Of a DNA stretch of 64,000 nt, positions 27,749-49,369 are shown piece after piece; position 1 is the stretch's first letter, and each line of letters opens with the position of its first letter. This DNA comes from an uncultured beta proteobacterium (lineage in GTDB: Bacteria; Pseudomonadota; Gammaproteobacteria; Burkholderiales; Burkholderiaceae_F), in assembly GCA_963702595.1 (NCBI GenBank), contig CAVPDC010000024.1, positions 12,593 through 76,592 of the forward strand, written 5' to 3'. Position numbers and translations under genes: made by a program. The notes under the pieces were generated by a model that saw only the letters and a program-made list of their open reading frames with translations, did not search any database and was not told the origin of the DNA.

Positions 27749-28038
27749 CGCCTTCACCTTTCAGAACGAGTTTCTCGTTGAAGATGCCCGGCGTGGCGGT
27801 CGCGAAGCCTCCTGCGCCGGCGACAACGCGCTCCGGATTCCGGTGCCGTTGCCGAGAGCACCGGCAGCAATCGAGGGCCGCCGGCGGCAAGCGCGGGATG
27901 CTACCACTGCACGGGCGGATTTCATCCTGGTGTGGCGCGGATGCCGCGTCGACTCGGGCGGCGAGCGAACGACGCCGCCCGGGAATACACTCCCGCGCAC
28001 CACAAAACTCGCCGCCAAGACGGACGAGGAGGAGACAC

Positions 28039-29859: not shown

Positions 29860-31757
29860 TGAACGTTCCGAAGGACGGCCGAACCCGGACCGAGGGCGCG
29901 GCACGCGCCGCTCGCCCTGTGCGGATCTCTGCCGTCAACGACTTCGTCGTCAAGTTTGCCAACGTCAATGGCTCCGGATCGGCCTCGGCCAACGAGCTGT
30001 TCGCCCGGAGCATCCTGCGCATGGGTGTTCCGGTGTCGCCGCGCAACATCTTTCCCTCGAATATCCAGGGCTTGCCGACCTGGTACGAAGTTCGAGTCAC
30101 CGAACAGGGGCATCTCGGGCGGCGCGGTGGGGTCGACCTGATGGTGGCGATGAACCCGCAGACCTGGGACCGCGACCTCAAGGAAATCGAACCCGGCGGC
30201 TACCTGCTGTACGACTCGACCCGCCCGACGCCGCCGAGCCGCCTGAGGGACGACATCTACATACTGCCGGTGCCGCTCACCGAGATCGCCGCAGCGAAGT
30301 TCGCCGATCCCAAGGAACGCCAGCTGCTGAAGAACATCATGTACGTTGGCGTGCTGGCGGCCACACTCGGCATCGAGCCTGAGGTCATCGCCCAACTGCT
30401 CGGCGAGCAGTACAAGGGCAAGGACCGGCTGGTCAAGCCCAACCTCGAAGCGTTCATGACGGGCCTGCACTACGGCCGCGAGCACCTCGAAGACGCGACT
30501 CAACTGCGGATTGTGCGCAGCGACAAGGTCGGCGACCGGATCTTCGTCGAAGGCAATGCGGCGACTGCGCTTGGCTGCGTCTACGGGGGCGCCACCGTCT
30601 GCGCCTGGTATCCGATCACGCCATCGACCTCGGTGGCCGAGGCGTTCCAGAAGTACTGCGCCAAGTTTCGCGTCGACGCTGCCACCGGACGCAACAAGTA
30701 CGCGGTGGTGCAGGCCGAGGACGAGCTGGCGTCCATCGGCATGGTGATCGGCGCCGGCTGGAACGGCGCGCGGGCGTTCACGGCCACCTCGGGCCCCGGC
30801 GTGTCTCTGATGACCGAGTTCATCGGCCTCGCGTACTTCGCCGAAGTGCCGGCGGTGATCATCAACGTGCAGCGCGGCGGACCGTCGACCGGAATGCCGA
30901 CGCGCACGCAGCAGTCGGACCTGCTCGCCTGTGCCTACGCCTCGCATGGCGATACCAAGCATGTACTGCTCTTTCCCGAGGACCCGCACGAGTGCTTCGA
31001 GTTCTCCGCCGCCGCTCTCGACCTGGCCGAGCGCCTGCAGACGCCGGTGTTCCTGATGACGGACCTCGACATCGGCATGAACCATCGGCTGTGCCGGCCG
31101 TTCAAGTGGGACGACACCCGGCGCTACGACCGCGGCAAGGTGATGGACACCGCCACGCTCGAATCCGGTGCCGACTTCGGCCGCTACCTCGACGTCGACG
31201 GTGACGGCATTCCCTACCGGACACTGCCGGGCTCGCATGCGACACGCGGCGCGTACTTCACGCGCGGCTCGACCAAGGACGCTTACGCGCGCTATTCCGA
31301 GGTCGGCTCCGACTACATCTACAACATGGAGCGGCTGCTGCGGAAGTTCGACACCGCCAGAGCACTGGTGCCGCAGCCGATCATCGGGCGCGCGCAAGGC
31401 AAGGCCGCCGCCGGCGTCATCTACTACGGCTCCACCAGCCCGGCGATGGCCGAAGCGCTCGCCCTGCTGCGCGCACAGGACGTCCAACTGGACCACCTGC
31501 GCGTGCGCGCCTTTCCGTTTCCGGACTCCGTCCAGGACTTCATCGCCCGCCACGAGACCGTGTTCGTCGTCGAGCAGAACCGCGATGCACAGTTGCGCAC
31601 GCTGCTGGTCAACGAACTCGGGATCGACCCCGCCCGGCTCGTGCCCGTCCTGCACTACGACGGCACGCCGATCACCGCGCGCTTCATCGTCAACGCTGTC
31701 GCGGAACGCGTGCAGGCGCGCAACGTGCGTGCACTCAAGCCCGGCAAGGCGGCCTGA
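29859..31757 (+). CDS. korA: 2-oxoacid:ferredoxin oxidoreductase alpha subunit (fused gamma+alpha domains)
   Basis: 632 aa. VNGSGSASAN gamma-domain motif. YPITPST and GPSTGMPT motifs. TGATG overlap with the upstream gene. Confidence 0.9.
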   Translation: MNVPKDGRTRTEGAARAARPVRISAVNDFVVKFANVNGSGSASANELFARSILRMGVPVSPRNIFPSNIQGLPTWYEVRVTEQGHLGRRGGVDLMVAMNPQTWDRDLKEIEPGGYLLYDSTRPTPPSRLRDDIYILPVPLTEIAAAKFADPKERQLLKNIMYVGVLAATLGIEPEVIAQLLGEQYKGKDRLVKPNLEAFMTGLHYGREHLEDATQLRIVRSDKVGDRIFVEGNAATALGCVYGGATVCAWYPITPSTSVAEAFQKYCAKFRVDAATGRNKYAVVQAEDELASIGMVIGAGWNGARAFTATSGPGVSLMTEFIGLAYFAEVPAVIINVQRGGPSTGMPTRTQQSDLLACAYASHGDTKHVLLFPEDPHECFEFSAAALDLAERLQTPVFLMTDLDIGMNHRLCRPFKWDDTRRYDRGKVMDTATLESGADFGRYLDVDGDGIPYRTLPGSHATRGAYFTRGSTKDAYARYSEVGSDYIYNMERLLRKFDTARALVPQPIIGRAQGKAAAGVIYYGSTSPAMAEALALLRAQDVQLDHLRVRAFPFPDSVQDFIARHETVFVVEQNRDAQLRTLLVNELGIDPARLVPVLHYDGTPITARFIVNAVAERVQARNVRALKPGKAA

Positions 31758-31767
31758 GGGGACCAAA

Positions 31768-32823
31768 ATGACGTATCTCGCCAAGCCGCGCTTGCACCAC
31801 CCCGCATTGCCGACCAATGCGCTCGGTCACACACGGCGCGACTACGAAGGCAAGATCTCTACGCTGTGTGCCGGGTGCGGCCACGACTCGATCTCGGCGG
31901 CGATCATCCAGGCGTGCTGGGAACTGTCGATCGAACCGCACCGCGTGGCCAAGCTGTCGGGCATCGGCTGTTCCTCGAAGACGCCGGACTACTTCCTGGG
32001 CATCTCGCATGGCTTCAACTCGGTCCACGGCCGCATGCCCTCGGTCATGACCGGTGCGAATCTTGCCAACCGGGACCTCATCTACCTGGGCGTATCGGGC
32101 GATGGTGATTCGGCGTCGATCGGCCTCGGCCAGTTTGCGCACCTGATCCGGCGCGGCGTCAACATGACCTATATCTGCGAGAACAACGGGGTCTACGGGC
32201 TGACCAAGGGCCAGTTCTCGGCCACCGCCGACCGTGGCTCCAAATCCAAGCGCGGGGCGGTCAACCGTGACGCTGCGATCGACATGGTGTCGCTGGCGCT
32301 GCAACTCGGCATCACCTATGTCGCGCGCAGCTTCTCAGGCGACAAGGACCAGCTCGTGCCGCTGATCAAGGGCGCGCTCAGCCACCGCGGTGCCGCGCTG
32401 CTCGACGTCATCAGCCCATGCGTGGCATTCAACAACCACGCCGGCAGCACCAAGAGCTACGACTACGTGCGCGAGCACAACGACGCCGTCAACCGTCTCG
32501 ACTTCATGCCGCGGCGCGAAGGCATCGTGGCCTCGTACGAGCCGGGCGAGGTCATCGAGATCACGCAGCACGACGGCAGCCGGTTGCGGCTGCGCAAGCT
32601 CACGGACGGCTTCGATCCGGGTGACGCGCTGGCGGCGATCAGCCACATCCACCAGCACCACGCGCGCGGCGAGATCGTCACGGGCCTGCTGTACGTCGAT
32701 CCGTCGGCCGACGACCTGCACGAGCACCTGAACACGGTGCCCACCCCATTGAACCGGCTGACGGAGACCGACCTCTGTCCGGGGTCTGCCGCGCTTCAAC
32801 GGCTGAACGCCGATCTCGCCTGA
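31768..32823 (+). CDS. korB: 2-oxoacid:ferredoxin oxidoreductase beta subunit (TPP-binding)
   Basis: 351 aa. CAGCGHDS cluster motif and TPP motif GDGDSASIG...ENNGVYGLTKGQ. Confidence 0.9.
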   Translation: MTYLAKPRLHHPALPTNALGHTRRDYEGKISTLCAGCGHDSISAAIIQACWELSIEPHRVAKLSGIGCSSKTPDYFLGISHGFNSVHGRMPSVMTGANLANRDLIYLGVSGDGDSASIGLGQFAHLIRRGVNMTYICENNGVYGLTKGQFSATADRGSKSKRGAVNRDAAIDMVSLALQLGITYVARSFSGDKDQLVPLIKGALSHRGAALLDVISPCVAFNNHAGSTKSYDYVREHNDAVNRLDFMPRREGIVASYEPGEVIEITQHDGSRLRLRKLTDGFDPGDALAAISHIHQHHARGEIVTGLLYVDPSADDLHEHLNTVPTPLNRLTETDLCPGSAALQRLNADLA

Positions 32824-33027: not shown

Positions 33028-33975
33028 ATGGCGCAGGCGAATGGCGCACAGGGATTCGAGATACTTGCGCGTGAGGACTACTCGGACGTCACCTACATGC
33101 TGGAGGTGGCCCACCCGATGATGGCGAAGGCCGCCAAGCCCGGCCAGTTTGTCATCGTCATGGAGCATGAGCACGGCGAGCGCATCCCGCTCACCATCGC
33201 CGACTTCGACCGCGAGCGCGGCACGATCACGCTGGTTATCCAGGCCGTCGGCAAGACCACCAAGGAGATGCAGGCCAGCTGCAAGGTCGGCACGCGGCTC
33301 TTCGCGATGGTCGGTCCGATGGGCATTCCGAGCCACATCGGTACCGCCAAGAAAGTGATCTGTGTCGGTGGTGGTCTCGGCGTCGCACCGGTTTACCCGC
33401 AGGCGCGCGCCTACAAGGAAAGTGGCGCCTACGTCATCGGCGTGGTCGGCTTCCGCAACAAGGACCTGATGTTCTGGCAGGACAAGTTCGCAGCGGTCTG
33501 CGACGAACTGATCGTCTGCACCGACGACGGTTCCGCCGGCATCAAGGGCCTCGTCACCGAAGGGATCAAGCAGGCCGTCGCCAGGCACTCTGATATCGAC
33601 GAAGTCGTGGCGATCGGACCGCCGATCATGATGAAGGGCTGCTCAGAGGCCACACGGGTGCACGGTATCAAGACGATGGTGAGCCTGAACCCCGTGATGG
33701 TCGACGGTACTGGCATGTGCGGCGGCTGCCGAGTCAAGGTTGGCGATCAGGTCAAGTTCGCGTGCGTCGACGGTCCCGACTTCGATGGCCACCAGGTCGA
33801 CTTCGACGACCTGATGTCGCGGCTGGTGCGCTACAAGCGCGCGGAGCACGACGCCATGGATCGCTGGCAGGAGTCGTGCAGGATCCGCGCCGACAAGGTG
33901 GTAGACCTCAAAACTGCGGTTCTCGGCGCCGACGCGGAAGTGCCGATCGACGTCCAGCCCAGCACCGACGGCTGA
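33028..33975 (+). CDS. nfnA: NfnA-like FAD/[2Fe-2S] subunit (sulfide dehydrogenase / PyrK-like, ferredoxin:NADP oxidoreductase small partner)
   Basis: 315 aa. PyrK-type fold (RIPLTIADFD, VGGGLGVAP) and a C-terminal CGGCRV...FACVDGPDF cluster motif. Confidence 0.8.
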   Translation: MAQANGAQGFEILAREDYSDVTYMLEVAHPMMAKAAKPGQFVIVMEHEHGERIPLTIADFDRERGTITLVIQAVGKTTKEMQASCKVGTRLFAMVGPMGIPSHIGTAKKVICVGGGLGVAPVYPQARAYKESGAYVIGVVGFRNKDLMFWQDKFAAVCDELIVCTDDGSAGIKGLVTEGIKQAVARHSDIDEVVAIGPPIMMKGCSEATRVHGIKTMVSLNPVMVDGTGMCGGCRVKVGDQVKFACVDGPDFDGHQVDFDDLMSRLVRYKRAEHDAMDRWQESCRIRADKVVDLKTAVLGADAEVPIDVQPSTDG

Positions 33976-33991
33976 CCGAGGAGCCGAACCT

Positions 33992-35496
33992 ATGGCGACC
34001 GCCAAGAAGAAAACGATCCGCACGATTCCGCAGGAGCGGACACCGATGCCGGAGCAGGACCCGCAGGTGCGGGCCCGCAACTTCGAGGAGGTGGCCTGCG
34101 GCTACCGGCTCGAGGACGCGCTGCGTGAGGCCGAGCGCTGCCTGCACTGCCCCGATGAGCCGTGCGTTCGCGGCTGCCCGGTCAGCATCGACATTCCGGC
34201 GTTCATCAAGAAGATCAGCGAGAAGCACTATCACGGCGCCTACGAGATCATCACCGACACTAACCTGCTGCCTTCCGTCTGCGGCCGCGTCTGCCCGCAG
34301 GAAAACCAGTGCGAAGGCGTGTGCACGGTCGGCGAGACACTCGAACCCGTGGCCATTGGCCGGCTCGAACGCTTCGTCGGCGACATGGCCATCGCAGAAG
34401 GATGGGAGAACGTTCCCTACATCGAGCCTTCAGGGTACAGGGTGGGCATCGTCGGCGCCGGGCCGGCCGGAATGGCGTGCGCCGCTGACATGGCCAAGGC
34501 CGGCTGCGAGGTCATCGTCTACGAAGCGTTCCACACACCGGGTGGCGTGCTGAAGTACGGCATCCCGGACTTCCGCCTTCCCAACGACGTCATCGATGCC
34601 GAGATCCAGAAGCTGCGCAACCTCGGCGTGCGTTTCGAGTGCAACACGCTGGTCGGCCGGCTCTTCACGATCGAGCAGATGGTGACCGAGATGGGCTTCC
34701 ATGCCGTGTTCATTGGTACGGGGGCGGGTTATCCGAGTTTCATGGGCATACCCGGCGAGTCGCTCAATGGCGTGCTGTCCGCCAATGAATTGCTCACACG
34801 CTGCAATCTGATGCGTGCGCGAGACTTCCCCAACTTCGATACGCCGCTGCAGCCGGGCAAGCACGTCGCCGTCATCGGTGCGGGCAACACGGCGATGGAC
34901 GCGCTGCGCGTGTCGCTGCGCCTGGGCGCCGAGTCGGTCCACTGCATCTACCGCCGCTCGAAGAAGGAAGCACCGGCACGCGTCGAGGAGATCCACCACG
35001 CGGAGCAGGAGGGAGTCGACTTCAACTGGCTGACCGCCCGGTCGAGATCCTGGGCGACAAGAGCAACAACGTGCGAGCGCTGCGCTGCGTGAAAATGGAA
35101 CTCGGCGAACCCGACGACTCGGGGCGACGTCGGCCGGTCGTCGTCCCCGGCAGCGAGTTCGAGTTCGAGGCCGACATGGTCGTGTTCGCCATCGGCACGA
35201 ATGCCAATCCCATCCTCGGCCAGACCTCAAAACTCAAGCTCAACAAGTGGGGCTACATCGCCACCGACGACAGCCTCGCCACGTCGATGTCCGGCGTCTG
35301 GGCCGGCGGCGACATCGTCACGGGCGCGGCCACGGTCATCCAGGCGATGGGCGCGGGCCGCAGGGCTGCTCGCGCGATGAAGGCCTACCTCGGCCTGCGC
35401 GACAGCGATGCCGTCTACGACACCGGGGCCGGCGGATCGCTCTTCGGCATTCCGCGCGAAGAGCACGGCTTTGCGCAGATCCGCGTCGCCCGCTAG
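33992..35496 (+). pseudogene. nfnB: NfnB-like GltD-family NADPH flavoprotein, interrupted by a 1-nt frameshift near 35036-35040 as sequenced
   Basis: Track ORFs 33992..35092 and 35071..35496 are two halves of one GltD/NfnB homologue. Restoring one C in gcccg gives ...DFNWLTAPVEILGDKSNNVRALRCVKMELGEPDDSGRRRP..., and 1505+1 nt makes 502 codons. Confidence 0.8.
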
Positions 35497-35535
35497 CCGC
35501 CGCACGCCACCGGAATTCGAAAGCAAGGAAGAAGC

Positions 35536-37428
35536 ATGAGCGCAGTCCTCGAACGCCCGTCGGCCACGGGCAAGGCCGGCACCAAGCCGGCGGTGAAGTT
35601 GCCCGAGCACATCGTTGAGGTTATCAGCGACTCGGGCGAAGGCGCCCAGCGCTGTGGCCAGGCATTCGCCTCGATTGCCGCTCGCAGCGGCAACGGCATC
35701 TGGACCGTGGAGATCATTCCCGCCGAGATCCAGCCGCCGGCGCGCAGCGTGGCCGGTGCCAGCGGCATCCGCATCCGCGTGGGCTCCAAGCATGTCAACA
35801 ACGGCGGCGACGAGACCGACCTCGTCGTTGCTTTCAACGAGCAGGTGTTGCTGGGACGGGTGCGCGCCGGCGAGCTCAAGCAGGGCGCGACGATCCTGCT
35901 GGAGAACATCTGGGCCGAACACCGTGACCCGGCCGTCGTGAAGTCCTACACCGACGCGGTGAAGGCACTGAAGGAGTCCGGGTTCCGCGTCATTGACCTG
36001 CCGCTCGAGAAGGAGTGCCGCTCCCTGATGAGCGACCCGCGCCGCGGCAAAAACATGTTCGTGCTCGGAGTGCTGGCGAGCATCTACAGCCTCGACCTGC
36101 AGCTGGCGCGCGACCAGATTGCGCTGACCTTCGGCAAGAAGGACCAGAAGGTCATCGACTCCAATGTCAAGCTGATGGAAGCCGGCTTCGCCTGGGGCGA
36201 AGCCAACCTCGACTTCAAGTACGAAATACCGGCCGAGAAGTCCAACGTGCCGCAGATCGTTGTCAACGGCAACACGGCGATCGCGCTCGGTGTCATCGCC
36301 TCGGGAATGGACATCTGTGCGATGTATCCGATCACGCCAGCCACGTCGGCCTCGCATTACCTGTCGGAGTGCTTCGAGAAGGTGGGCGGCATCGTGCACC
36401 AGGCCGAGGACGAAATTGCCGCCTGCGCCTTCGCGATCGGCGCCTCCTACGCTGGCCGCTGCGCGGTGACCATCACGTCCGGGCCGGGCTACTCACTGAA
36501 GCAGGAAGGCATCGGGCTGGCGGTGATGGCGGAGATCCCGCTGGTCGTTGTCAACGTGCAGCGCGGCGGGCCCAGCACCGGGCAGCCGACGAAGGTCGAA
36601 CAAGCTGATCTGCTGACCTCGATCTACGGCAGCCACGGCGACGCACCCAAGGTGGTGCTCGCAACGACCAGTATCGAGGACTGCTTCTATTCGATGATCA
36701 CGGCGCGCAAGATCGCCGAGACGTTCGGCATGGTGGTCGTGGTCCTGACCGACGCCAGCCTTGCGACCGCCCAGCAACCGTTTCCCCGCCCGATGTTCAG
36801 CGAGGAGTGGCTGGCACCGCCGATCGACCAGTCGCCTTTGCCCGAGGGCGCGAAGCCCTATGACTGGGACAAGATCACGGGCATCGCACGGCGGTTCTCG
36901 CCTGGGCAGCCGAACGGCATGCATACCGTGACCGGCCTTGCGCACGACCGTGCGAGCAAGGTGGCATACGACCCGATCATCAACGAGGAAGGTCTGCGCA
37001 TGCGCAGCCTGAAGCTGGCGACGCTGCAGAAGACGCTGAAGACGCCGCCGGTGTTCGGCGACCCGGAAGGCGACCTGCTGGTGGTCGGCTGGGGCAGCAC
37101 GCAGGGCGTCATCGAGGAGGCGGTGCAGCGACTGCGCGACGAAGGGCTCAAGGTTTCCGCGCTGCAGATGCGCTTCATCCAGCCAATGCCGTCGGGCATC
37201 AAGGACATCCTCAAGCGTTTCAGGAAAGTGATGACGGTCGAAGGGACGTGGGCCGATCGACCGCACGAAGACGAGATGATCGACGAAGAAAACCGCCGCT
37301 ACGCGCCGCTGGCGATGATGCTGCGCGCGCGCACTCTCGTCGACGTCGACTGCTGGACCGAGGCCAAGGGCCAGCCGATCAAGCCGGGACAGGTGGTCCA
37401 GGCTCTCCGCGCCAAGCTGGCCGAATAA
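35536..37428 (+). CDS. Second 2-oxoacid:acceptor oxidoreductase alpha subunit (mycobacterial KorA / Hydrogenobacter ForA-like)
   Basis: 630 aa. MYPITPATSAS and RGGPSTGQPTK motifs. RBS AAGGAAGAAG. Confidence 0.9.
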   Translation: MSAVLERPSATGKAGTKPAVKLPEHIVEVISDSGEGAQRCGQAFASIAARSGNGIWTVEIIPAEIQPPARSVAGASGIRIRVGSKHVNNGGDETDLVVAFNEQVLLGRVRAGELKQGATILLENIWAEHRDPAVVKSYTDAVKALKESGFRVIDLPLEKECRSLMSDPRRGKNMFVLGVLASIYSLDLQLARDQIALTFGKKDQKVIDSNVKLMEAGFAWGEANLDFKYEIPAEKSNVPQIVVNGNTAIALGVIASGMDICAMYPITPATSASHYLSECFEKVGGIVHQAEDEIAACAFAIGASYAGRCAVTITSGPGYSLKQEGIGLAVMAEIPLVVVNVQRGGPSTGQPTKVEQADLLTSIYGSHGDAPKVVLATTSIEDCFYSMITARKIAETFGMVVVVLTDASLATAQQPFPRPMFSEEWLAPPIDQSPLPEGAKPYDWDKITGIARRFSPGQPNGMHTVTGLAHDRASKVAYDPIINEEGLRMRSLKLATLQKTLKTPPVFGDPEGDLLVVGWGSTQGVIEEAVQRLRDEGLKVSALQMRFIQPMPSGIKDILKRFRKVMTVEGTWADRPHEDEMIDEENRRYAPLAMMLRARTLVDVDCWTEAKGQPIKPGQVVQALRAKLAE

Positions 37429-37451
37429 CTCGCAGCCAAGGAAACCAGCCG

Positions 37452-38438
37452 ATGGGCTCCGCACTCAGCCAATTCATCATCAAGCTGCACGAAGAACATC
37501 GCAGCCTCGAGGACTACCAGGGCGGCATACCGCGGTGGTGCAGCGGCTGCGGCGACAACGCCATCCTCACCGCGGTCCAGCGCCTGTGCCGCGACGAGAA
37601 CCTCGCTCCCGAGCGCACGGTGTTCGTGTCCGGGATCGGCTGCTCGAGCCGCTTCCCGCACTACATGAAGACCTACGGCTTCCACGGCATCCACGGCCGC
37701 GCGTTCCCGATCGCCGAGGGCGTGAAGATGGCGCGCCCGGACCTCGCCGTTTTCGTCAACACGGGCGACGGCGACTGCTGCTCGATCGGAGCCGCGCACT
37801 GGATCCACGCGATCCGGTACAACATGAACCTGACCGTGATCCTGCACGACAACCAGATCTATGGCCTGACGAAGAAGCAGGCGTCGCCCACCTCGCAGAT
37901 CGGCACGAAGAGCAACACGACGCCGCGCGGCAGCGTGCTCGAAGCGATGAACCCGCTGACGGTTACCCTCGGCGTGCAGAACGCCTCGTTCGTCGCACAG
38001 GGTGTCGACTGGATGCCCGAGGTGCTGTACGACATCATCGCCCGGGCCTACAGGCACCGTGGCTTCTCGTTCGTGCGCATCATCCAGCGCTGCCCTGAGT
38101 GGCTGCCTAAGACTTTCGAGGCGTGGGTGCACGACCCGGGCAAGACGCTGCTGCTCACGCACGCTAACGGCCTCACGCCGAGCGCCGAGACGAGCCGCAT
38201 TTACAAGAACCAGCGCGAGCACGATCCGCTGGACATCCACCGGGCGCGCGAGATCGCGTCGTCCGTGGACCCGATTCCTGTCGGCATTCTTTACCACGAC
38301 CCCAGCGTTCCTTGCTACGAGGACCTCCGCGGCGCCGGCGCGCCTCGCACCGCGGAAACGATCCGCGCCGGGCTCGACAGGGAATTCGACAAATTCACGA
38401 TCTGGCCGGACGAGGCACGCGAACCGCGCGCCGCCTGA
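37452..38438 (+). CDS. Second 2-oxoacid:acceptor oxidoreductase beta subunit (TPP-binding)
   Basis: 328 aa from the ATG at 37452. CSGCGDNA motif. TPP motif GDGDCCSIG...HDNQIYGLTKKQ. Confidence 0.9.
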   Translation: MGSALSQFIIKLHEEHRSLEDYQGGIPRWCSGCGDNAILTAVQRLCRDENLAPERTVFVSGIGCSSRFPHYMKTYGFHGIHGRAFPIAEGVKMARPDLAVFVNTGDGDCCSIGAAHWIHAIRYNMNLTVILHDNQIYGLTKKQASPTSQIGTKSNTTPRGSVLEAMNPLTVTLGVQNASFVAQGVDWMPEVLYDIIARAYRHRGFSFVRIIQRCPEWLPKTFEAWVHDPGKTLLLTHANGLTPSAETSRIYKNQREHDPLDIHRAREIASSVDPIPVGILYHDPSVPCYEDLRGAGAPRTAETIRAGLDREFDKFTIWPDEAREPRAA

Positions 38439-38466
38439 GCTGCCCCACTCATCGAGGTTCGCCGCC

Positions 38467-40699
38467 ATGGACATGGCCGCCAAGTTTCAGGACCAGACGG
38501 TCTTTCACATGACCGGCAAGCGCGCGGGCGAAGGGCTCGCGGAGCTGGCGCCCGGTCTTCGCCCTGCCCTCCTCGCGGCCTACCGGGACCTGGGCCGGCT
38601 GCGCTACGACTATCCGGTCGTACTGCTGGAGCGCGACGCAGGCAGCCAGTATGTCAAGTCGCTATCGACCCTAATGGGCGAGCTCATCGCCGGCATCGCA
38701 CCGCGAGGCATCGAGGGCGAGCGCGTGCGCAAGCAACTGCTACGACTCGAGCACGAGATCCGCATCCTGTCCGCCAGCGGCGCACGGGGCTCGCTCAAGG
38801 ACCTGTGGCTGCGGGCCGTGGACAAGGCCGCGGGCCGCGACGACGACATGCGGATCGCTTTGCGTGACGCCGTCGCGTCGCTCGAGGACGATGGCGAGGT
38901 CATCGACTGCGACCGGACGCTTGCCTCGCGCTTCCTGTCGCGCGCCTGGCACAACGTCCACGCCGAGAAGGCGACCGAGTTTCGCAGCCAGGTCGATCAC
39001 CTGGTGCGCAAACTGTCGGACATCCTGCGCGCCGCCTTCGCGCATTCACAGGCCGGCCAGCAGCCTGAGGCGCTGAAGTCGGGGTTCGGCTCGCTGCACG
39101 ACTCGGTCTTCGACTTCTCCGCGATGTCGCGCCTAGTGGCGCGCAATGTGCCCCAGGACGAGCTGCCGCCGCAACGGAGGCAACGAATCGAGTGGGCGCT
39201 CGGGGTCCTTCGCAGCCAGCCGTTTTATCCCGATCCGACCCGAACTGGTGCCGAGGCAACCTACGGGTTCGTCTTTAGCGACTGCGCGACGGCGATCGAG
39301 GCGCACCGCACGCGCCTGCCGAAGCTGGTCGAGGTGGTAAAGGCGGTGGCCATCGCCGACCTTGAGGCTCGCGGCGGCTATGTCGAGGCCGATCACGACG
39401 CGTTCTTCGAACGCTTCGACGAGCATGCGCTGACGGCGGACGACCTCGCGCAGTTCCCCGACTATCTCGTCTGCATTCCCCCGGAGCGCAACGATGCGCC
39501 GGAAAATGCAATGCTGATGGAAATGCTGTCGGCCGGCATGCCTGTGAAGGTCCTGGTGCAGCACACCGACCTGCTGGAAGAAGCCGCGATTGGCCAGGGC
39601 CACTTTGCGTTCGGCATCCGCAGCGCGCGGCTGGCGACAACGGCCATGGGGCTGGGCGGCATGTTCGTCATTCAGTCCACGGTCTCGAACCTCTACGCCT
39701 TGCGCGACCGCGTGCGCCGTGGCATGAGCTGCCGCGGCCCAGCGCTGTTCAGCCTTTTTACCGGATCGCCGGCCGAAGCAAGCGACCTGGCGCCTTACCT
39801 GACCGCAGCGGCAGCGATGAAGTCGCGTGCGTTCCCGGCGTTTACCTACGACGCCGACGCCGGCACCAACTGGGCCACGCGCTTCTCATTCGAGAACAAC
39901 CGCAATCCGGAGGAGGACTGGCCCGGTGAGGAGTTCGCATACGCCGACGACGACCTGCAACGTGTGCAGGAACGGGTCCGCTTCACCTACGCCGACTTCG
40001 TGCTGTGCGACCGACGCCATGCGCATCACTTCGCCGTGGTGCCGCGCGACCGCTGGACCACCGCGATGGTGCCGGTCGCGGACTGGCTGGCGCTGTCGGA
40101 GAAGGACGCCGCCGAGCGCATCCCATTCGCGCTAGCCGTTGACGATGCGAACCGGCTGCACCGCGTCATCGTCGACTCGCGCCTGATGCAGGCGACGCGG
40201 CGCTGCGTGCTGCTCTGGCACCGGCTGCAGGAGCACGGCGGCATCCACAACTCGCACGCCGAGCAGGCGCTGGCGCGGGAGAAGGCGGCGTGGGAAGAAC
40301 AGAAGCGGCAGGAGATTGAAGCACTGAAGCAGGCCGCGCCTGCAGGAGGCCCAGGCACCGCCCCGGCCGAGGTTGCCGCCGCGCCCGCCACCGCCTCGGC
40401 CGTGCCCGCGGCACCGACAGAGGCGGCCGCCGAGGCGACGCGGCCGCCGTCGGACGAGCCCTGGATCGAAACGATCCGCTGCTCGAGCTGCAACGAGTGC
40501 CAGAACATCAACGACCGGCTCTTCGCGTACAACGACAACAAGCAGGCCTACTTCAAGGACCTCGGCGCCGGGACCTACCGGCAGATCGTCGAGGCGGCCG
40601 AGGCCTGCCAGGTAGCGATCATCCACCCGGGCAAGCCGAAGAATCCTGAACGAACCCGGGCTCGAGGAATTGCTGGAGCGCGCGAAGCCGTTCCTGTAG
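38467..40699 (+). pseudogene. 743-aa uncharacterised protein X: large novel N-terminal region, Ala/Pro linker and a C-terminal single-cluster ferredoxin domain. A 1-nt frameshift lies 50-80 nt before its stop as sequenced
   Basis: ATG at 38467, 28 nt after korB2. CSSCNECQ...EACQVAIIHPG matches the CxxCxxC...C ferredoxin pattern. After about 40645 the GC3-rich frame switches (+1) to LNEPGLEELLERAKPFL* with TAG at 40697-40699. 2233-1 nt makes 744 codons. Confidence 0.7.
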
Positions 40700-40722
40700 A
40701 GATACGTGGCACCGGGCCGGCG

Positions 40723-41430
40723 ATGAAGATCCTGCGCTCGGACCTCGCGCACGGTCATGAACTTGAAGGCGCGGTCGTTGTCATCGACGTGCTGCGGGCC
40801 TTCACGACCGCGGCCTATGCATTTGCCGCCGGCGCCCGATCGATGATCGCGGCCGACTCGCTCGACAGTGTCGCGCGGCTGCGCAGCCGCTACCCGGCGT
40901 CGATGACGATGGGGGCCCTGCCCGGCGGTCGGCCCGTTCCCGGAATGGACTTCGGCAACTCGCCTGCCGAAATCATCGGTCGCGACTTGTCGGGCATCAC
41001 GCTCATCCAGTTCACCGCTGGCGGAGTCAAGGGGCTGGTGGATTGTGACCACGCCACCGAGGTGCTCGCGGGCAGCCTGGTCTGTGCCCGCTCGACGGCG
41101 CGCTATATCCGCACGCTGGCGCCGTCCACCGTCACGCTCGTCATCACCGGACTGTGGACCGACCGCGACGGCGACGAGGACCACGCCTGTGCTGACCTGA
41201 TCGAGGCCTACCTGCGCGGGGAATGTCCGGAAGTCACCGCGTACGAAGAACGCGTGCGCCAGTCGGACTTCGGCCGCCGGTTCGGCGACAGCACCCACCC
41301 GCACCTGCCGGCCGCCGATCTCAACCTGTGCGCCGCCGCCGACCGTTTCGGATTCGCGATGCCAATGCGTCGGACCGGTCACGGACTGGTCATCGAACCG
41401 GTGGCGCTGGCGTTTCTGCCGTCCGCCTGA
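40723..41430 (+). CDS. 2-phosphosulfolactate phosphatase (ComB) family protein
   Basis: 235 aa from the ATG at 40723. The VVVIDVLRAFTTAAYA motif is typical of the ComB family (PF04029-like, as recalled). Confidence 0.72.
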   Translation: MKILRSDLAHGHELEGAVVVIDVLRAFTTAAYAFAAGARSMIAADSLDSVARLRSRYPASMTMGALPGGRPVPGMDFGNSPAEIIGRDLSGITLIQFTAGGVKGLVDCDHATEVLAGSLVCARSTARYIRTLAPSTVTLVITGLWTDRDGDEDHACADLIEAYLRGECPEVTAYEERVRQSDFGRRFGDSTHPHLPAADLNLCAAADRFGFAMPMRRTGHGLVIEPVALAFLPSA

Positions 41431-41486: not shown

Positions 41487-41972
41487 ATGCTCAAACTGCT
41501 TTCCGTCCTGATGGCCTTGCTGCTGGCAGCACCGCTGCCGGTCTTGGCGCAGCTGTACAAGTGGCTCGATGCGGATGGCGTCGTCAACTACGGCGACCTT
41601 CCGCCGCCGAATGCATCGAATGTGCAGGCCGTGGGCCCGACCTCGCTGAGCGTCGTTCCGGGCGTGCCGAAGGAGCAGATGGAAGCCATGCGCGAGCGAG
41701 ACGAGCAGCGCCGCCAGGAGGCGCTGCAGCGCGAGGCCGACGAGGCACGCGCCCGCGCCAGCGTGCGGGCGGCAAGCGGGGTGCCGTCCGAGCTCCAGTC
41801 TTACGAAGAATATGCCTACGACTATGACTACGGTCCGGTCTTCGGCTACGGACCACCCCGCGTCCGGCGGCCCGGCGCAAACCGATCACGGCCGCATCCC
41901 CCGATCGCTAAGCCGACGCCCCCGGCCCAGCCAATGCCGCTCGGGGAGCCGTCGATTCTTCTGGGGCGCTAG
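41487..41972 (+). CDS. DUF4124 domain-containing secreted protein
   Basis: 161 aa from the ATG at 41487. Signal peptide MLKLLSVLMALLLAAPLPVLA, followed by YKWLDADGVVNYGDLPP (the DUF4124 signature) and then a charged/Pro-rich tail. Confidence 0.7.
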   Translation: MLKLLSVLMALLLAAPLPVLAQLYKWLDADGVVNYGDLPPPNASNVQAVGPTSLSVVPGVPKEQMEAMRERDEQRRQEALQREADEARARASVRAASGVPSELQSYEEYAYDYDYGPVFGYGPPRVRRPGANRSRPHPPIAKPTPPAQPMPLGEPSILLGR

Positions 41973-42049: not shown

Positions 42050-43366
<1,317 letters not shown>

Positions 43367-43393
43367 GGTCTTTTTCCCGGGTTCGAGGTGAGA

Positions 43394-43660
43394 TCAGACG
43401 GACCGGAGTCCGTCCAGGACAGTGCGAACGGCATTGTGATCGAGAGTGCCGGCCGGCTCTTTGCGCGCCAGCAAAAGGTCGAGAAGTTCGTTGTCCGGGA
43501 GGTCCAGGAGCGCCTCCAGTGCCAGGACGTCGTCGACCGTGAGGCTCGCCTCATGCCGGTCCAGGTAACGGGTGACGATGATGTCGTTTTCCAGCAACCC
43601 CCGCCTTGCGCGCCAGCGCAGCCTGCGCCTTTCGAGATCGCCGAGCACGACGGCGCTCAC
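43394..43660 (-). CDS. sdhE: Succinate dehydrogenase FAD assembly factor SdhE (DUF339)
   Basis: The GTG at 43660 lies 2 nt after the sdhB stop. 88 aa with RLRWRARRGLLENDII...LLDLPDNELLDLLL, typical of SdhE. Confidence 0.8.
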   Translation of the reverse strand: MSAVVLGDLERRRLRWRARRGLLENDIIVTRYLDRHEASLTVDDVLALEALLDLPDNELLDLLLARKEPAGTLDHNAVRTVLDGLRSV

Positions 43661-43662
43661 GG

Positions 43663-44424
43663 TCAGACTTCGCGGCGAACCAGCATGTCGCGGATCTTGC
43701 CGATCGCCCGGGTCGGATTCAGCTCTTTGGGGCAGACGTCCACGCAATTCATGATCGTGTGGCAGCGGAACAGCCGGTAGGGGTCGTTCAGGTTGTCGAG
43801 CCGCTCGTTGGTAGCCTGGTCACGGCTGTCGGCGATGAAGCGGTACGCCTGCAGCAGTCCGGCGGGGCCGACGAACTTGTCCGGGTTCCACCAGAAACTC
43901 GGGCAGCTGGTCGAGCAGCAGGCACACAGGATGCACTCGTAGAGGCCGTTCAGTTCCTCGCGCTCCTCGGGCGACTGCAGCCGCTCCTTCTCCGGCGGCG
44001 GCGTGTCGTTGATGAGGAACGGCTTGATCGAGTTGTACTGCTTGAAGAACTGCGACATGTCGACGATCAGGTCGCGGATCACCGGCAGGCCCGGGAGCGG
44101 CCGCAAGACGATCGGCTCCTTCAGATCACGCAGGTTGGTAATGCACGCCAGGCCGTTCCTGCCGTTGATGTTCATCGCGTCCGAACCGCACACGCCCTCG
44201 CGGCAGGACCGGCGGAAGGCGACGCTGTCGTCGAAGTCCGCCTTGATGCGCATCAGCGCATCCAGCAGCATCTTGTCGGTGGGCTGCAGCTGGACCTCAA
44301 GCTTCTGCATGTACGGCTTTGGGTCCTTGTCCGGGTCGTAGCGGTAGATCTCGAATCGAACCGTCCGCACCCCCGTCGCGGCTCCTGCCACCGCATTGCT
44401 CTCAACGTTGCTGTTCGCCGTCAT
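43663..44424 (-). CDS. sdhB: Succinate dehydrogenase iron-sulfur subunit
   Basis: 253 aa with three Cys clusters (CREGVCGSDAMNING, CILCACCSTSCP, CHTIMNCVDVCP). Confidence 0.95.
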   Translation of the reverse strand: MTANSNVESNAVAGAATGVRTVRFEIYRYDPDKDPKPYMQKLEVQLQPTDKMLLDALMRIKADFDDSVAFRRSCREGVCGSDAMNINGRNGLACITNLRDLKEPIVLRPLPGLPVIRDLIVDMSQFFKQYNSIKPFLINDTPPPEKERLQSPEEREELNGLYECILCACCSTSCPSFWWNPDKFVGPAGLLQAYRFIADSRDQATNERLDNLNDPYRLFRCHTIMNCVDVCPKELNPTRAIGKIRDMLVRREV

Positions 44425-44489
44425 GCTTCGACCTCAGTAAGAACCAGTCGCGCCACCATCGACCGGCCACGCGCCCTGCCGTTGTGATG

Positions 44490-44522
44490 AAAAAAATCGT
44501 CTGGCTCCGCCAGCGAATTTTT
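44490..44522. terminator. Bidirectional intrinsic-terminator-like element inside the sdhA-sdhB spacer (A7 - 8-bp bulged hairpin - T5)
   Basis: aaaaaaa tcgtctggc tcc gccagcga attttt. On the minus (sdh) strand the hairpin is followed by seven T. Confidence 0.4.
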
Positions 44523-44532
44523 CTAACCCTAG

Positions 44533-44562
44533 CGCGCAAAAGTAGGGGTGCACTTTTGCGCG
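44533..44562. repeat. Perfect 11-bp inverted repeat (hairpin, 8-nt loop) just downstream of the sdhA stop
   Basis: cgcgcaaaagt-aggggtgc-acttttgcgcg, read directly from the sequence. Confidence 0.6.
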
Positions 44563-44566
44563 GCTC

Positions 44567-46342
44567 CTAGAACGTTCGCTTCTTCGGTTCGAAGGTCGGG
44601 ACCGTGAGCGGCTTCATGTTCACCGGCTTGTAGTCGAGCCGGTTGCCATCCGAAAAAAACAGCGTGTGCTTGATCCAGTGCGTGTCGTCGCGCTCCGGGA
44701 AGTCGTCGCGCGCGTGCGCGCCGCGGCTCTCGGTGCGGGCCGCCGCGGATACGATCGTCGCCTTGGCGGTCTCCACCAGGTTGTCGAGTTCCAGCGCCTC
44801 GATGCGCGCCGTATTAAAAACCTTGGACTTGTCGCCGATCGCCACATTTTTGGCGCGCTCGGCCAGTTCCATGATCTTGGCTACGCCCTCGTCGAGCAGC
44901 TTGCCGGTGCGGAATACACCGCAGTGGGTCTGCATCGCCTTGCGGATGGCATTGGCGACGTCCTGCACACGTTCGCCCTTGTCGCGCGCGTCGAGTGCCG
45001 CCAAGCGCGCCGCCGTCGCATCGCCGGCGTCCCCTGGCAGGGGACGATGCTCCTGCGCCTTGAAGTTCTGACCGACGATGTGATTGCCGGCCGCGCGGCC
45101 GAACACCACGAGGTCGAGCAGCGAGTTCGTGCCGAGGCGGTTCGCACCATGCACCGAAACGCACGCGCATTCACCGATGGCGTACAGGCCCTCGATAACC
45201 GTGTTCGGGTTGCCGGCTTTCGGGGCGACGACCTGGCCGTGGTAATTGGTTGGTATGCCGCCCATCTGATAGTGAATCGTCGGAACGACCGGGATCGGCT
45301 CCTTGATCGGATCGACGTTGGCGAACTTGATCGCGATCTCGCGGATCGATGGCAGCCGCTTCATGATCGTATCGGCGCCGAGATGGTCGAGCTTCAGCAG
45401 AACGTGGTCCTTGTGCGGGCCACAGCCGCGCCCTTCCTTGATCTCCTGGTCCATGCTGCGCGAGACAAAGTCGCGCGGCGCGAGGTCCTTCAGCGTCGGC
45501 GCATAGCGCTCCATGAAGCGTTCGCCATTGCAGTTGAGCAGGATTCCGCCTTCGCCACGCACGCCTTCGGTGATCAGCACGCCCGCGCCGGCCACGCCGG
45601 TCGGGTGGAACTGCCAGAACTCCATGTCCTCGAGCGGCAGCCCCGCGCGCGCCACCATGCCCATGCCGTCGCCGGTATTGATGTAGGCGTTGGTCGAGGC
45701 GTCCCAGATGCGCCCGGCGCCACCGGTCGCCAGCACCGTGACCTTCGATTCGAAGATCATCACGTCGCCGGTTTCCATCTCGAGCGCGACGACGCCGACC
45801 ACGGCGCCTTCCGCGTCGCGTATCAGGTCGAGCGCCATCCATTCGACGAAGAACTGTGTGCGCTCACGCACGTTGCGCTGGTACAGCGTGTGCAGCAGTG
45901 CGTGTCCGGTGCGGTCCGCGGCCGCGCAGGCGCGCGGCACCGGCTTTTCACCAAAATTCGCGGAGTGCCCGCCAAACGGCCGTTGGTAGATCGTGCCGTC
46001 CGGGTTACGGTCAAACGGCATGCCGAAGTGCTCGAGTTCGTACACGACCTTCGGGGCCTCGCGGCACATGAACTCGATCGCGTCCTGGTCGCCCAGGTAG
46101 TCCGAGCCCTTGACCGTGTCGAACATGTGCCAGAGCCACGTGTCCTCGGTCATGTTGCCGAGCGACGCGCCAATGCCTCCCTGCGCGGCCACCGTGTGCG
46201 AGCGGGTCGGGAAGACTTTCGACAGCACCGCGACGTTCAGGCCAGCCTGCGCCAGCTGCAGGGAGCACCGCATGCCCGAGCCACCCGCGCCGACGATCAC
46301 CGCGTCAAAGCGACGACGGGCCACTTTCGATGCAACCGCCAT
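44567..46342 (-). CDS. sdhA: Succinate dehydrogenase flavoprotein subunit
   Basis: 591 aa. VIVGAGGSGMR FAD motif, the histidine-flavinylation region RSHTVAAQGG, and the conserved C-terminus. Confidence 0.95.
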   Translation of the reverse strand: MAVASKVARRRFDAVIVGAGGSGMRCSLQLAQAGLNVAVLSKVFPTRSHTVAAQGGIGASLGNMTEDTWLWHMFDTVKGSDYLGDQDAIEFMCREAPKVVYELEHFGMPFDRNPDGTIYQRPFGGHSANFGEKPVPRACAAADRTGHALLHTLYQRNVRERTQFFVEWMALDLIRDAEGAVVGVVALEMETGDVMIFESKVTVLATGGAGRIWDASTNAYINTGDGMGMVARAGLPLEDMEFWQFHPTGVAGAGVLITEGVRGEGGILLNCNGERFMERYAPTLKDLAPRDFVSRSMDQEIKEGRGCGPHKDHVLLKLDHLGADTIMKRLPSIREIAIKFANVDPIKEPIPVVPTIHYQMGGIPTNYHGQVVAPKAGNPNTVIEGLYAIGECACVSVHGANRLGTNSLLDLVVFGRAAGNHIVGQNFKAQEHRPLPGDAGDATAARLAALDARDKGERVQDVANAIRKAMQTHCGVFRTGKLLDEGVAKIMELAERAKNVAIGDKSKVFNTARIEALELDNLVETAKATIVSAAARTESRGAHARDDFPERDDTHWIKHTLFFSDGNRLDYKPVNMKPLTVPTFEPKKRTF

Positions 46343-46345
46343 GAA

Positions 46346-46723
46346 TCAGACTCTCCAGAGAATCTGCACGGACCATACCGCGCAGAACACCAGCCAGAGC
46401 ACCGTCAGCGTCTGCAGAGCCACCCGGATCCCTGTGGGCTTGACATAGTCCATCCAGATATCACGCACGCCGATCCACGCGTGATAAAAAAGCGCGAACA
46501 GCGCGACCAGCGTCACGATCTTCATCCAGACCGGCACGAACACTCCTGCCCACGCGTCGTAGCCGCCGGCGGCACCGAGCAGCAGGCGCAGAACGACGAG
46601 CAGCGAGAACGCGGACAGGATGATCGCCGTCAGTCGCTGCAGCAGGAATGCGCCGACGCCCTTGTGCGCGCCAACGACGATGCGTTTGGAACCGATGCCC
46701 TCGGGCGACGCGGTCGTATTCAT
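46346..46723 (-). CDS. sdhD: Succinate dehydrogenase hydrophobic membrane anchor subunit
   Basis: 125 aa from the ATG at 46723 (MNTTASPEGIGSKRIVVGAHKG...). Three TM helices. 1-nt overlap (TGATG) with sdhC. The track ORF's upstream extension is spurious. Confidence 0.85.
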   Translation of the reverse strand: MNTTASPEGIGSKRIVVGAHKGVGAFLLQRLTAIILSAFSLLVVLRLLLGAAGGYDAWAGVFVPVWMKIVTLVALFALFYHAWIGVRDIWMDYVKPTGIRVALQTLTVLWLVFCAVWSVQILWRV

Positions 46724-47139
46724 CAAAACACTCCAAACAGCTTGAGCGCAACCAGCACCGTCAGCGGTAGGCTGATCCAGAACACGGCCAGCGCACTGGT
46801 GCGTGCGGCCGACTTTTCCACTCCAACGTGCAGGTCGAGCAGCAGGTAGCGGATGCCCGCGATGAGATGGTGGAGAAAGGCCCAGATCAGCACTAGCAGC
46901 ACCAGCTTGCCGAACCAATGCGACGCGACTTCGACCAGACGCGCAAAGCTGAGTTCGGACATCAGGCTCAGATCGAACAACCACAGAAGCAGGGGCAACG
47001 CGAGAAACAGCAGCGCTCCGCTTACGCGGTGCAGGATCGACACCATGCCAGGCGGCGGCAGCTTGTACTGCAGGATCTGCGTGACGTGGATGTTGCGGAT
47101 CTGCGGACGGGCTTTGCCGGCGACTGGAGTGGAGCTCAT
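46723..47139 (-). CDS. sdhC: Succinate dehydrogenase cytochrome b556 subunit
   Basis: 138 aa. SILHRVSG heme-ligand region. Three TM helices. Confidence 0.9.
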   Translation of the reverse strand: MSSTPVAGKARPQIRNIHVTQILQYKLPPPGMVSILHRVSGALLFLALPLLLWLFDLSLMSELSFARLVEVASHWFGKLVLLVLIWAFLHHLIAGIRYLLLDLHVGVEKSAARTSALAVFWISLPLTVLVALKLFGVF

Positions 47140-47205
47140 TGTTATTGCGATCTTGGCGCCCTGGAGAGACGCAGTATTCTGAACGAATTGATGCGACGGA
47201 CCAAA

Positions 47206-47970: not shown

Positions 47971-48025
47971 GGGGTGATTTCAGCACAGGGAAAGCATTGT
48001 TGTGTGATCTGCATTAAATCATATG

Positions 48026-49334: not shown

Positions 49335-49369
49335 GCGCGACCCAACGCCGCACACGAGGAGACACGCGC

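Follow-up and report, generated by a model that had tools for sequence, protein, structure and literature searches.

The 2-oxoacid:ferredoxin oxidoreductases (OFOR) and the flavoproteins of the Nfn type are central to low-potential electron metabolism, and the two are usually pictured as linked through a diffusible ferredoxin pool, in anaerobes. The locus described here, in which genes of both types stand together, lies in a stretch of 64,000 nucleotides from an uncultured beta proteobacterium (NCBI GenBank assembly GCA_963702595.1, contig CAVPDC010000024.1, positions 12,593 to 76,592 of the forward strand), referred to below as the window. At positions 33028–41430 of the window are genes for an Nfn pair (nfnA and nfnB), a two-subunit OFOR (korA2 and korB2), a protein that is here called X, and a ComB-like protein. 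The first five of these form a strictly conserved operon, which suggests a hard-wired link from the OFOR to Nfn via a dedicated, tethered iron-sulfur carrier.

An OFOR coupled to a pyridine-nucleotide flavoprotein is known in kind; what is new is that the present system is built around a widespread and uncharacterised family, that of X. Ebenau-Jehle, Boll and Fuchs reportedly described, in 2003, a 2-oxoglutarate:NADP+ oxidoreductase of Azoarcus evansii, KorABC, with the three subunits KorA, KorB and a GltD-like KorC. In that enzyme a KorAB without a delta subunit is said to be coupled to a GltD-type NADPH flavoprotein, with pyridine nucleotide being reduced without free ferredoxin. The same composition is found in the window in the KorC–KorA1–KorB1 cluster (27778–32823) upstream of the present locus. 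The nfn-kor module differs from KorABC in that NfnA, NfnB and X replace KorC, with an added NADH site and the potential for bifurcation, and in that its iron-sulfur conduit is on a separate 743-amino-acid (aa) protein, apparently a dead pyruvate:ferredoxin oxidoreductase (PFOR), and not within the flavoprotein.

Both Nfn subunits of the module are close homologues of those of NfnAB/NfnI from T. maritima (4YLF) and P. furiosus (5JCA) and have the expected cofactor motifs. The characterised Nfn enzymes use free ferredoxin, however, whereas nfnAB of the module is invariably in an operon with korAB and X. The ferredoxin domain of X may be likened to the delta subunit of OFOR and to domain V of PFOR, which are ferredoxin-like iron-sulfur modules that relay electrons from the beta-subunit cluster outward, although these have two [4Fe-4S] clusters and are rigidly docked, while X is predicted to have one cluster, on a disordered tether and followed by a conserved tail. 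The body of X shares its predicted fold with domains VI–VII of homodimeric PFOR (D. africanus 1B0P, Moorella 6CIN and 6CIQ), with sequence homology running via a group of long PFORs, but X is without domains I–V, the GDG...N motif for thiamine pyrophosphate (TPP) and Mg, and the cluster cysteines. By analogy only, X also resembles the E2 lipoyl swinging arms of the 2-oxoacid dehydrogenases in having a flexible Ala/Pro linker that bears a small cofactor domain. There the cofactor is lipoyl-lysine, whereas in X it would be a [4Fe-4S] ferredoxin of a different fold, and there is no homology between the two.

A 2019 review describes Nfn genes in a variety of clusters, nowhere mentions oxoglutarate and contains no cluster of this kind (PMC6405883). 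Papers on tubeworm symbionts report a dimeric korAB beside gltA (PMC6315080) and a co-regulated 'PFOR-like' gene, both of which are left uncharacterised there. A first-pass annotation of the window, made from the letters alone, knew of no characterised system with this composition, and literature searches agree with it: no description of the module was found in the literature searched as full text, where absence is not proof of absence overall.

Gene content of the locus

The six genes are co-oriented on the + strand, and the gaps of 16, 39, 23, 28 and 23 nt between them, as first reported, are confirmed by the coordinates. The features are as follows.

33028..33975, + strand: nfnA, 315 aa; small Nfn subunit, PyrK-like, with an FAD/NAD(H) domain and a [2Fe-2S] site
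33992..35496, + strand: nfnB; large Nfn subunit, GltD-like, with two [4Fe-4S] clusters, FAD and an NADPH site; frame broken near 35036
35536..37428, + strand: korA2, 630 aa; OFOR alpha subunit with the gamma domain fused N-terminally
37452..38438, + strand: korB2, 328 aa; OFOR beta subunit, TPP-binding, with one [4Fe-4S] cluster
38467..40699, + strand: X; true stop codon TAG at 40697–40699
38467..40332, + strand: body of X, residues 1–622; helical N-terminal region, degenerate PFOR domain-VI/PP-like fold, beta-rich region and long terminal helix
40333..40452, + strand: linker of X, about residues 623–662; rich in Ala, Pro and Glu, variable, predicted to be disordered
40453..40699, + strand: ferredoxin domain and C-terminal tail of X; predicted single [4Fe-4S] cluster, tail frameshifted here
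40723..41430, + strand: ComB-like gene, 235 aa; PF04029, 2-phosphosulfolactate phosphatase family

Conservation of the five-gene module

Related loci were taken from one genome per GTDB species (60 loci, all from metagenome-assembled genomes, MAGs) and from metagenomes (80 more, with 44–76% identity in X). Gene order was scored for the five genes wherever a locus extended 5.7 kb or more upstream of X (81 loci), and the ComB-like gene was scored in the 120 loci with at least 1 kb downstream. NfnA, NfnB, KorA, KorB and X are encoded colinearly in this order on one strand in 81 of 81 loci, down to 44% X identity. A gene-neighbourhood check of X homologues had been set beforehand as a refuting test of the first-pass annotation, and in all 81 loci it found X syntenic with both OFOR and Nfn genes. 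KorB is directly upstream of X in 109 of 111 loci. The syntenic loci cover MAGs of beta-, alpha- (including some labelled Xanthobacteraceae) and gammaproteobacteria. All of the related loci examined have this gene order, which is therefore more than chance. The conserved unit is the five genes nfnA–nfnB–korA–korB–X.

Median identity to the window proteins is 88% for NfnB, 84% for KorB, 81% for KorA and 77% for NfnA, and only 63% for X. X is therefore evolving faster than its partners, which fits a non-catalytic scaffold. At E≤1e-3 the X family comprises 2,054 representatives of clusters at 50% identity, of which 858 remain at E≤1e-30. Most members are about 730–760 aa, and they are overwhelmingly derived from MAGs and metagenomes, mostly from MAGs of soil, sediment and wetland Betaproteobacteria; all of the named matches are MAGs. 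That X belongs to an undocumented family is borne out, there being no Pfam or NCBIfam model for its body and no database names for it other than 'ferredoxin' or 'hypothetical protein'.

The Nfn and OFOR subunits

The identification of the first two genes as an NfnAB-type flavoprotein pair is confirmed for both subunits by Pfam, NCBIfam and PDB matches. NfnA scores 381 bits against NCBIfam PRK06222, which has a cut-off of 220, and contains Pfam DHODB_Fe-S_bind; it matches the small subunit of P. furiosus NfnI (5jca_S, E=5e-95) and 4ylf_A (E=2e-75) in PDB. The translation shows VDGTGMCGGCR...ACVDGP, which fits a [2Fe-2S] site made of Asp and three Cys. NfnB has Pfam Fer4_20 (E=2e-42) and Pyr_redox_2, and its PDB matches are 4ylf_B of T. 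maritima (E=3e-129) and 5jca_L (E=1e-113). The Cys motifs CLHCPDEPCVRGCP and CGRVCPQENQCEGVC are present in its translation. These domains and motifs of NfnB can be seen even though its open reading frame (ORF) is split by a 1-nt deletion in the window, and nfnB is intact in the relatives. Both subunits are close to Nfn enzymes of known structure that bifurcate, and this pair may use flavin to bifurcate or confurcate electrons among NADH, NADPH and ferredoxin.

Compared with solved Nfn small subunits, NfnA (33028–33975) has approximately 30 extra C-terminal residues, the best match ending at residue 285 of 315. NfnB has approximately 14 extra residues at its N-terminus, where the PDB match begins at residue 15, and approximately 30 at its C-terminus, where the NCBIfam matches stop at about residue 110 in the C-terminal ORF of 141 residues (35071–35496). 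X or KorAB might dock on these terminal extensions.

For KorA2 and KorB2, the matches in Pfam, NCBIfam and PDB agree with the original description of a two-subunit OFOR without a delta subunit. KorA2 scores 511 bits against TIGR03710 (OAFO_sf; cut-off 483) and has Pfam POR, POR_N and PFOR_II in the expected order. Its best PDB match is the 2-oxoglutarate:ferredoxin oxidoreductase (OGOR) of Magnetococcus (6n2n_A, E=9e-83). KorB2 has Pfam TPP_enzyme_C and PFO_beta_C, reaches 248 bits against TIGR02177, slightly below the cut-off of 262, and matches 5b46_B (E=1e-52) and 6n2n_B (E=3e-48). Residues C30, C33, C64, C214, G105-D106-G107-D108 and N134 are invariant in the KorB alignment, and KorB2 retains the GDGD...N motif for TPP and Mg along with four Cys for one [4Fe-4S] cluster. 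No gene for a dicluster ferredoxin or delta subunit was found within 33028–41430. The substrate of KorA2B2 is probably 2-oxoglutarate. This is hinted at by the best solved match of KorA2 being an OGOR and by the position of the module in this clade, between sucAB–lpd and gltA–sdh of the tricarboxylic acid (TCA) cycle.

Protein X

Pfam matches in X are limited to Fer4_13 (residues 669–720, E=2e-5), and the body matches no Pfam or NCBIfam model. The statement in the first-pass annotation that only the C-terminal ferredoxin of X is recognisable holds to that extent, but it does not hold for the body, which BLASTP and Foldseek identify as a degenerate PFOR domain VI. By BLASTP, X residues 269–726 align with residues 1175–1635 of the long PFOR P0273 at 31% identity (E=3e-61), and this alignment spans both the TPP-binding (TPP_enzyme_C) region of P0273 and its C-terminal Fer4_13 domain. 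The TPP/Mg motif is lost in X, with PPERND...HTDLLEEAA..IGQ in place of GGDG...DTQVYSNTGGQ in P0273, and the X columns at the positions of the motif are not conserved across the X family. The ligand of the proximal cluster is lost as well; P0273 has AVCPP and X has TGSP, the cluster Cys being replaced by Gly/Ser. In 57 diverse sequences of the X family the sole invariant or near-invariant Cys are the four of the C-terminal ferredoxin domain, with none in the body.

The degenerate PFOR domain-VI/PP-like fold is located at approximately residues 325–470 of X. An AlphaFold2 (AF2) model of residues 1–625, made from a 94-sequence alignment, has a mean predicted local distance difference test score (pLDDT) of 89.3 and a predicted TM-score (pTM) of 0.86. 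When this model was compared with PDB by Foldseek, 24 of the 25 top matches were PFOR/OFOR beta chains, with probabilities of 0.97–1.00 and with 300–390 aligned columns in the top matches; the best was Moorella PFOR (6ciq_B, E=1.8e-3, probability 1.00). The 94-sequence alignment was required for this, an earlier AF2 model from 28 sequences (pLDDT 71) having yielded only weak Foldseek matches. When PDB sequences were searched with an X family profile, only the ferredoxin domain was matched. By sequence comparison and predicted fold, X is descended from the C-terminal half of PFOR (domain VI), is catalytically dead and bears a tethered ferredoxin. Without domains I–V, the GDG...N motif and the cluster Cys, a protein of this sequence cannot be a catalytic OFOR.

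The Ala/Pro-rich linker noted at the outset is real and is present family-wide, with a composition of 33% Ala, 16% Pro and 12.5% Glu. Its pLDDT in a full-length AF2 model is 31–46, and the segment between the conserved GGIxNSH motif and the ferredoxin domain, which takes in the terminal helix and the linker, ranges from 46 to more than 100 aa across the family. The ferredoxin domain has a CxxCxxC...C(P) motif, in which family alignments show C672, C678 and C714 to be invariant and C675 nearly so. Exactly four Cys are present in the domain in 224 of 239 homologues. A profile search against PDB matches it to D. africanus ferredoxin I (1dax_A, E=4e-4). The domain is predicted to be a single-cluster ferredoxin of the Fer4_13 type, with a [4Fe-4S] cluster. 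X ends in a conserved C-terminal tail, HPGKPxNPxEPGLEELLxRAxPF, which is a candidate docking peptide.

Rnf-linked loci and long PFORs

A second architecture is found in distant lineages (Calditrichota and metagenome contigs), in which the genes for KorA, KorB and an X-like protein stand in this order and are followed by those for RnfB-like, a long PFOR, RnfC and RnfD. KorA of these loci is 56–65% identical to KorA2 and KorB is 53–64% identical to KorB2. The constant unit is KorAB with X; its partner varies, and in each case is a ferredoxin:NAD(P)+ oxidoreductase, be it the soluble Nfn or the membrane Rnf. The pairing of korA–korB–X-like with rnf rather than nfnAB supports X as a dedicated electron link from OFOR to ferredoxin:NAD(P)+ oxidoreductase. 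The earlier suggestion that the electron conduit has been outsourced to X thereby gains independent support, from other phyla. The Rnf-linked sister architecture also suggests that the same adaptor logic ties OFORs to membrane energetics.

The long PFOR-like proteins, of 1500–1720 aa, are encoded inside rnf operons with the order RnfB-like, long PFOR, RnfC, RnfD, RnfG. Those of 1577–1719 aa are on the P0273 contig and in loci L141 (8137–16124), L144 (13394–22380) and L145 (8001–21160). They retain the signatures POR_N, PFOR_II, POR, Fer4 and TPP_enzyme_C, and on this basis are probably active enzymes. In two of them, P0273 and P0275, the C-terminal end is an extension resembling X, with a Fer4_13 domain on a tether. 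These two share with X the part that follows domain V, the extension at the C-terminus, the Fer4_13 domain with its tether, and the tail; they differ from X in keeping the signatures of the catalytic domains. No description of the long PFORs or of a PFOR–Rnf arrangement was found in the literature searched.

In Calditrichota, proteins of 1460 aa are encoded directly after korA–korB (L141 3742–8124 and L144 9001–13380). They look like a PFOR that is complete but degenerate, with OFOR alpha/gamma-like domains (I-II-III, with weak POR and PFOR_II matches) fused to a full X region, and no TPP motif was detected in them. These proteins look like an intermediate between the long PFORs and the X of 740 aa.

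The upstream KorC cluster

The parallel drawn in the first-pass annotation between the module and the cluster upstream of it, in which a KorC-like GltD-type NADPH flavoprotein is combined with KorA1 and KorB1, holds for 27778–32823.

27778–29859, + strand: KorC-like NADPH flavoprotein with C-terminal dicluster ferredoxin domain; Pfam Fer4_20, Pyr_redox_2 and Fer4_7
29865–31757, + strand: KorA1; Pfam POR and POR_N
31768–32823, + strand: KorB1; Pfam TPP_enzyme_C

The KorC-like flavoprotein has a C-terminal 2x[4Fe-4S] domain (Fer4_7, residues 593–668), which indicates that in this cluster a delta-like relay is fused to the NADPH flavoprotein. The iron-sulfur relay is thus part of the flavoprotein in the KorC cluster, whereas in the nfn-kor module it is placed on X. 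In related loci the KorC–KorA1–KorB1 cluster often adjoins the module, on either side.

Proposed function and alternatives

The interpretation favoured here, with a confidence only a little above even, is that nfnA–nfnB–korA2–korB2–X encode a self-contained 2-oxoacid (probably 2-oxoglutarate):NAD(P)+ oxidoreductase module that is independent of free ferredoxin. That the proteins form a complex and that Nfn bifurcates in the module is inferred, as are the substrate, the route taken by the electrons and the direction of the reaction. KorA2B2 would be the catalytic OFOR, with TPP and a [4Fe-4S] cluster, and would perform the CoA-dependent oxidative decarboxylation of a 2-oxoacid. X, with its origin in PFOR domain VI, would serve as a scaffold without catalytic activity and would hold its ferredoxin domain on a tether of 35–40 Ala/Pro/Glu residues, and the dead PFOR body would probably anchor X to one of its partners. 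The ferredoxin domain would take single electrons from the KorB2 cluster and swing to the [4Fe-4S] clusters of NfnB, and NfnAB would exchange the low-potential electrons with NADP(H) and NAD(H). Canonically Nfn catalyses, with Fd for ferredoxin, 2 Fd(red) + NADH + 2 NADP+ <-> 2 Fd(ox) + NAD+ + 2 NADPH. With this stoichiometry, in the oxidative direction, one 2-oxoglutarate and one NADH would give succinyl-CoA, CO2 and two NADPH.

If this is correct, the module represents a new coupling of 2-oxoacid oxidation or synthesis to the balance of NADH and NADPH. It would also explain a large family that is now annotated as 'ferredoxin' or 'hypothetical', and would be a natural case of a pseudoenzyme reused as an electron-transfer scaffold. 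A compact module of five genes may be of interest to engineers of ferredoxin-independent 2-oxoacid synthases or of TCA variants that generate NADPH.

Several observations weigh against this interpretation. Of 57 large loci only 22, those of the close clade, have the TCA neighbourhood, which the other lineages are without, and the assignment of 2-oxoglutarate is therefore soft. Nfn function cannot be told from sequence (PMC6405883), and not all Nfn homologues bifurcate. Alignment of the X family with the KorB alignment by hhalign is in the expected register, with a probability of only 3%, so it is the long-PFOR intermediates and the predicted structure that carry the homology of X to OFOR beta subunits. 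Scans for promoters and terminators found none above shuffle expectation and are uninformative. The dead body of X, at 620 residues, exceeds what a carrier domain needs. Lastly, nfnB and X are both frameshifted in the window, and the module might therefore be inactive in this organism.

The main rival to the proposed oxidative module is the same machinery running in reverse, with NfnAB bifurcating NADPH electrons to NAD+ and the ferredoxin of X and so driving KorA2B2 as a 2-oxoglutarate/pyruvate synthase. This would be a reductive carboxylation independent of the ferredoxin pool in facultative or microaerobic bacteria; it is conceivable on thermodynamic grounds, and is a serious minority possibility. 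The Magnetococcus OGOR (6n2n), the closest solved relative of KorA2, was reportedly published as a CO2-fixing enzyme of the reverse TCA cycle, and with sucA–sucB–lpd next door a second enzyme working solely in the oxidative direction would be partly redundant. Against this, the neighbouring KorC–KorA1B1 resembles the KorABC of Azoarcus evansii, which is reportedly NADP+-reducing and oxidative, and the window contains no ATP-citrate lyase or other marker of the reductive TCA cycle. The Rnf-linked variant fits reverse electron transport that makes reduced ferredoxin, and the Nfn reaction is reversible (PMC6405883), although sequence does not allow the direction to be read. In tubeworm symbionts the dimeric korAB beside gltA, which also speaks for reversal, has been discussed as a possible reversed oxidative TCA cycle (PMC6315080).

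A bolder form of the idea, which is regarded as rather unlikely, has KorA2B2, X and NfnAB in a stable supercomplex in which NADPH bifurcation is channelled to the OFOR via the swinging ferredoxin, so that succinyl-CoA or acetyl-CoA is reductively carboxylated without a free ferredoxin pool, and in which X is a general adaptor of OFORs to Nfn or Rnf. Were this true, it would be a new, insulated CO2-fixing step in widespread, largely uncultured soil Burkholderiales that are not strict anaerobes.

X might alternatively be a pseudoenzyme that regulates, protects or assembles KorA2B2, for example through oxygen protection or redox sensing, with NfnAB simply recycling free ferredoxin. OFORs are generally oxygen-sensitive, and many of the hosts look like soil or sediment aerobes or denitrifiers, with nirS neighbours in 12 loci. 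The size of the dead body noted above favours such a role, and the complete dead PFOR of 1460 aa that is encoded beside korAB in Calditrichota, with domains I-II-III and X, is reminiscent of a decoy or of a paralogue acting as partner. However, the tether, the four-Cys ferredoxin domain and the tail are the most conserved features throughout the family, including the probably active long PFORs; a ferredoxin:NAD(P)+ oxidoreductase is encoded alongside in every case; and the body is without conserved Cys for a disulfide switch. A regulatory or protective X is considered quite unlikely, and a tethered electron carrier within a 2-oxoacid:NAD(P)+ oxidoreductase module is preferred.

Reading frames in the window

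The first-pass annotation was mistaken in treating nfnB and X as intact frames; each carries a single-base frameshift, which had been silently read through. The 1-nt deletion near 35036 splits nfnB into frames 33992–35092 and 35071–35496. In X there is an extra T at 40647, 17 codons ahead of the true TAG (40697–40699), which shifts the frame, and in the mechanical ORF list X and the ComB-like gene appear as a single ORF of 1142 aa, 38002–41430. When the T at 40647 is removed the C-terminus of X becomes ...HPGKPKNPNEPGLEELLERAKPFL-TAG, matching the end of the family consensus. The 743 aa originally given for X is correct as the length of the intact homologues, but the X of the window itself is frameshifted before its stop.

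The closest relative is locus L001, from a soil betaproteobacterial MAG, with 93.7% DNA identity over 8.47 kb. Over this length the window differs from L001 by exactly two uncompensated indels, near 35036 and at 40647, and is otherwise collinear. The insertion in X is evident against both L001 and a second relative, L002, and close relatives have uninterrupted frames at both indel sites. Outside the module, the prpC-like (2-methyl)citrate synthase gene (50271–51436, + strand) is spread over the frames 50271–50489, 50329–50763 and 50603–51436, with one uncompensated indel versus L001 at 50296. Similar split matches, in different genes, occur in many related loci from long-read soil MAGs. Given the intact close relatives, the break in prpC and the split matches in these long-read MAG loci, the frameshifts in nfnB and X are probably assembly indel errors.

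The alternative that the frameshifts are real, and that the operon of this genome is a decaying pseudogene cluster while the module is functional in relatives, is very unlikely. It draws on both of the indels falling in coding sequence and shifting the frame, but the collinearity with L001, the strong family or structure matches of all six proteins, and a pattern of broken prpC and split long-read matches that is typical of assembly indels speak against decay. The continuous frames of close relatives at both sites led to the rejection of a programmed frameshift. A genuine X–ComB fusion was also rejected, since the frames of relatives are intact and the homologues finish with the conserved tail and a stop codon.

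The ComB-like gene and the wider neighbourhood

The sixth gene does belong to the ComB family, as annotated (PF04029, E=3e-32), but it is not part of the conserved unit. It is found within 400 nt downstream of X in 25 of the 120 loci and is absent from the other 95, and is therefore accessory, lineage-specific and outside the core. The match to PF04029 is above the cut-off, while the NCBIfam equivalog scores, at 28–75 bits against cut-offs of 175–440, are all far below. These scores place it in the PF04029 family without making it a ComB equivalog. In coenzyme M biosynthesis the product of ComB leads to a 2-oxoacid, sulfopyruvate. It is highly unlikely that all six genes form a pathway for a phosphorylated or sulfonated 2-hydroxy/2-oxo acid (phosphosulfolactate to sulfolactate to sulfopyruvate, then OFOR) as this coenzyme M route and the position of the ComB-family gene, 23 nt after X on the same strand, might suggest, when most loci have no ComB, genes for ComA, ComC or sulfolactate dehydrogenase are not present nearby, and none of the ComB equivalog cut-offs is approached.

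A supercluster of TCA genes flanks the OFOR clusters in the window. On the - strand are lpd<-sucB<-sucA (21708–27757), followed by the KorC cluster, the module and a DUF4124 gene. Downstream (42050–56282) are gltA<-sdhB<-sdhA (- strand), a GntR-type regulator, mdh, prpB, prpC, prpD and acnA. A classical 2-oxoglutarate dehydrogenase (sucA–sucB–lpd) is therefore encoded beside two OFOR systems. The DUF4124 gene (41487–41972, + strand) is directly after the ComB-like gene and its product has a signal-peptide-like N-terminus; several close relatives have a homologue in this position, in some cases on the other strand. An Rfam scan of 27–43 kb gave no match.

The conserved neighbours found outside the module are only lineage-specific ones (TCA genes, DUF4124, nirS, SoxB-like and purM), and none is general. 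A gene for the cytochrome cd1 nitrite reductase, nirS, is near the module in 12 loci (L025 15046–16881 and 11 others), and a SoxB-like gene with a 5'-nucleotidase C-terminal domain is near it in L026 (1154–2878) and 10 other loci. The presence of these neighbours suggests denitrifying or sulfur-oxidising hosts.

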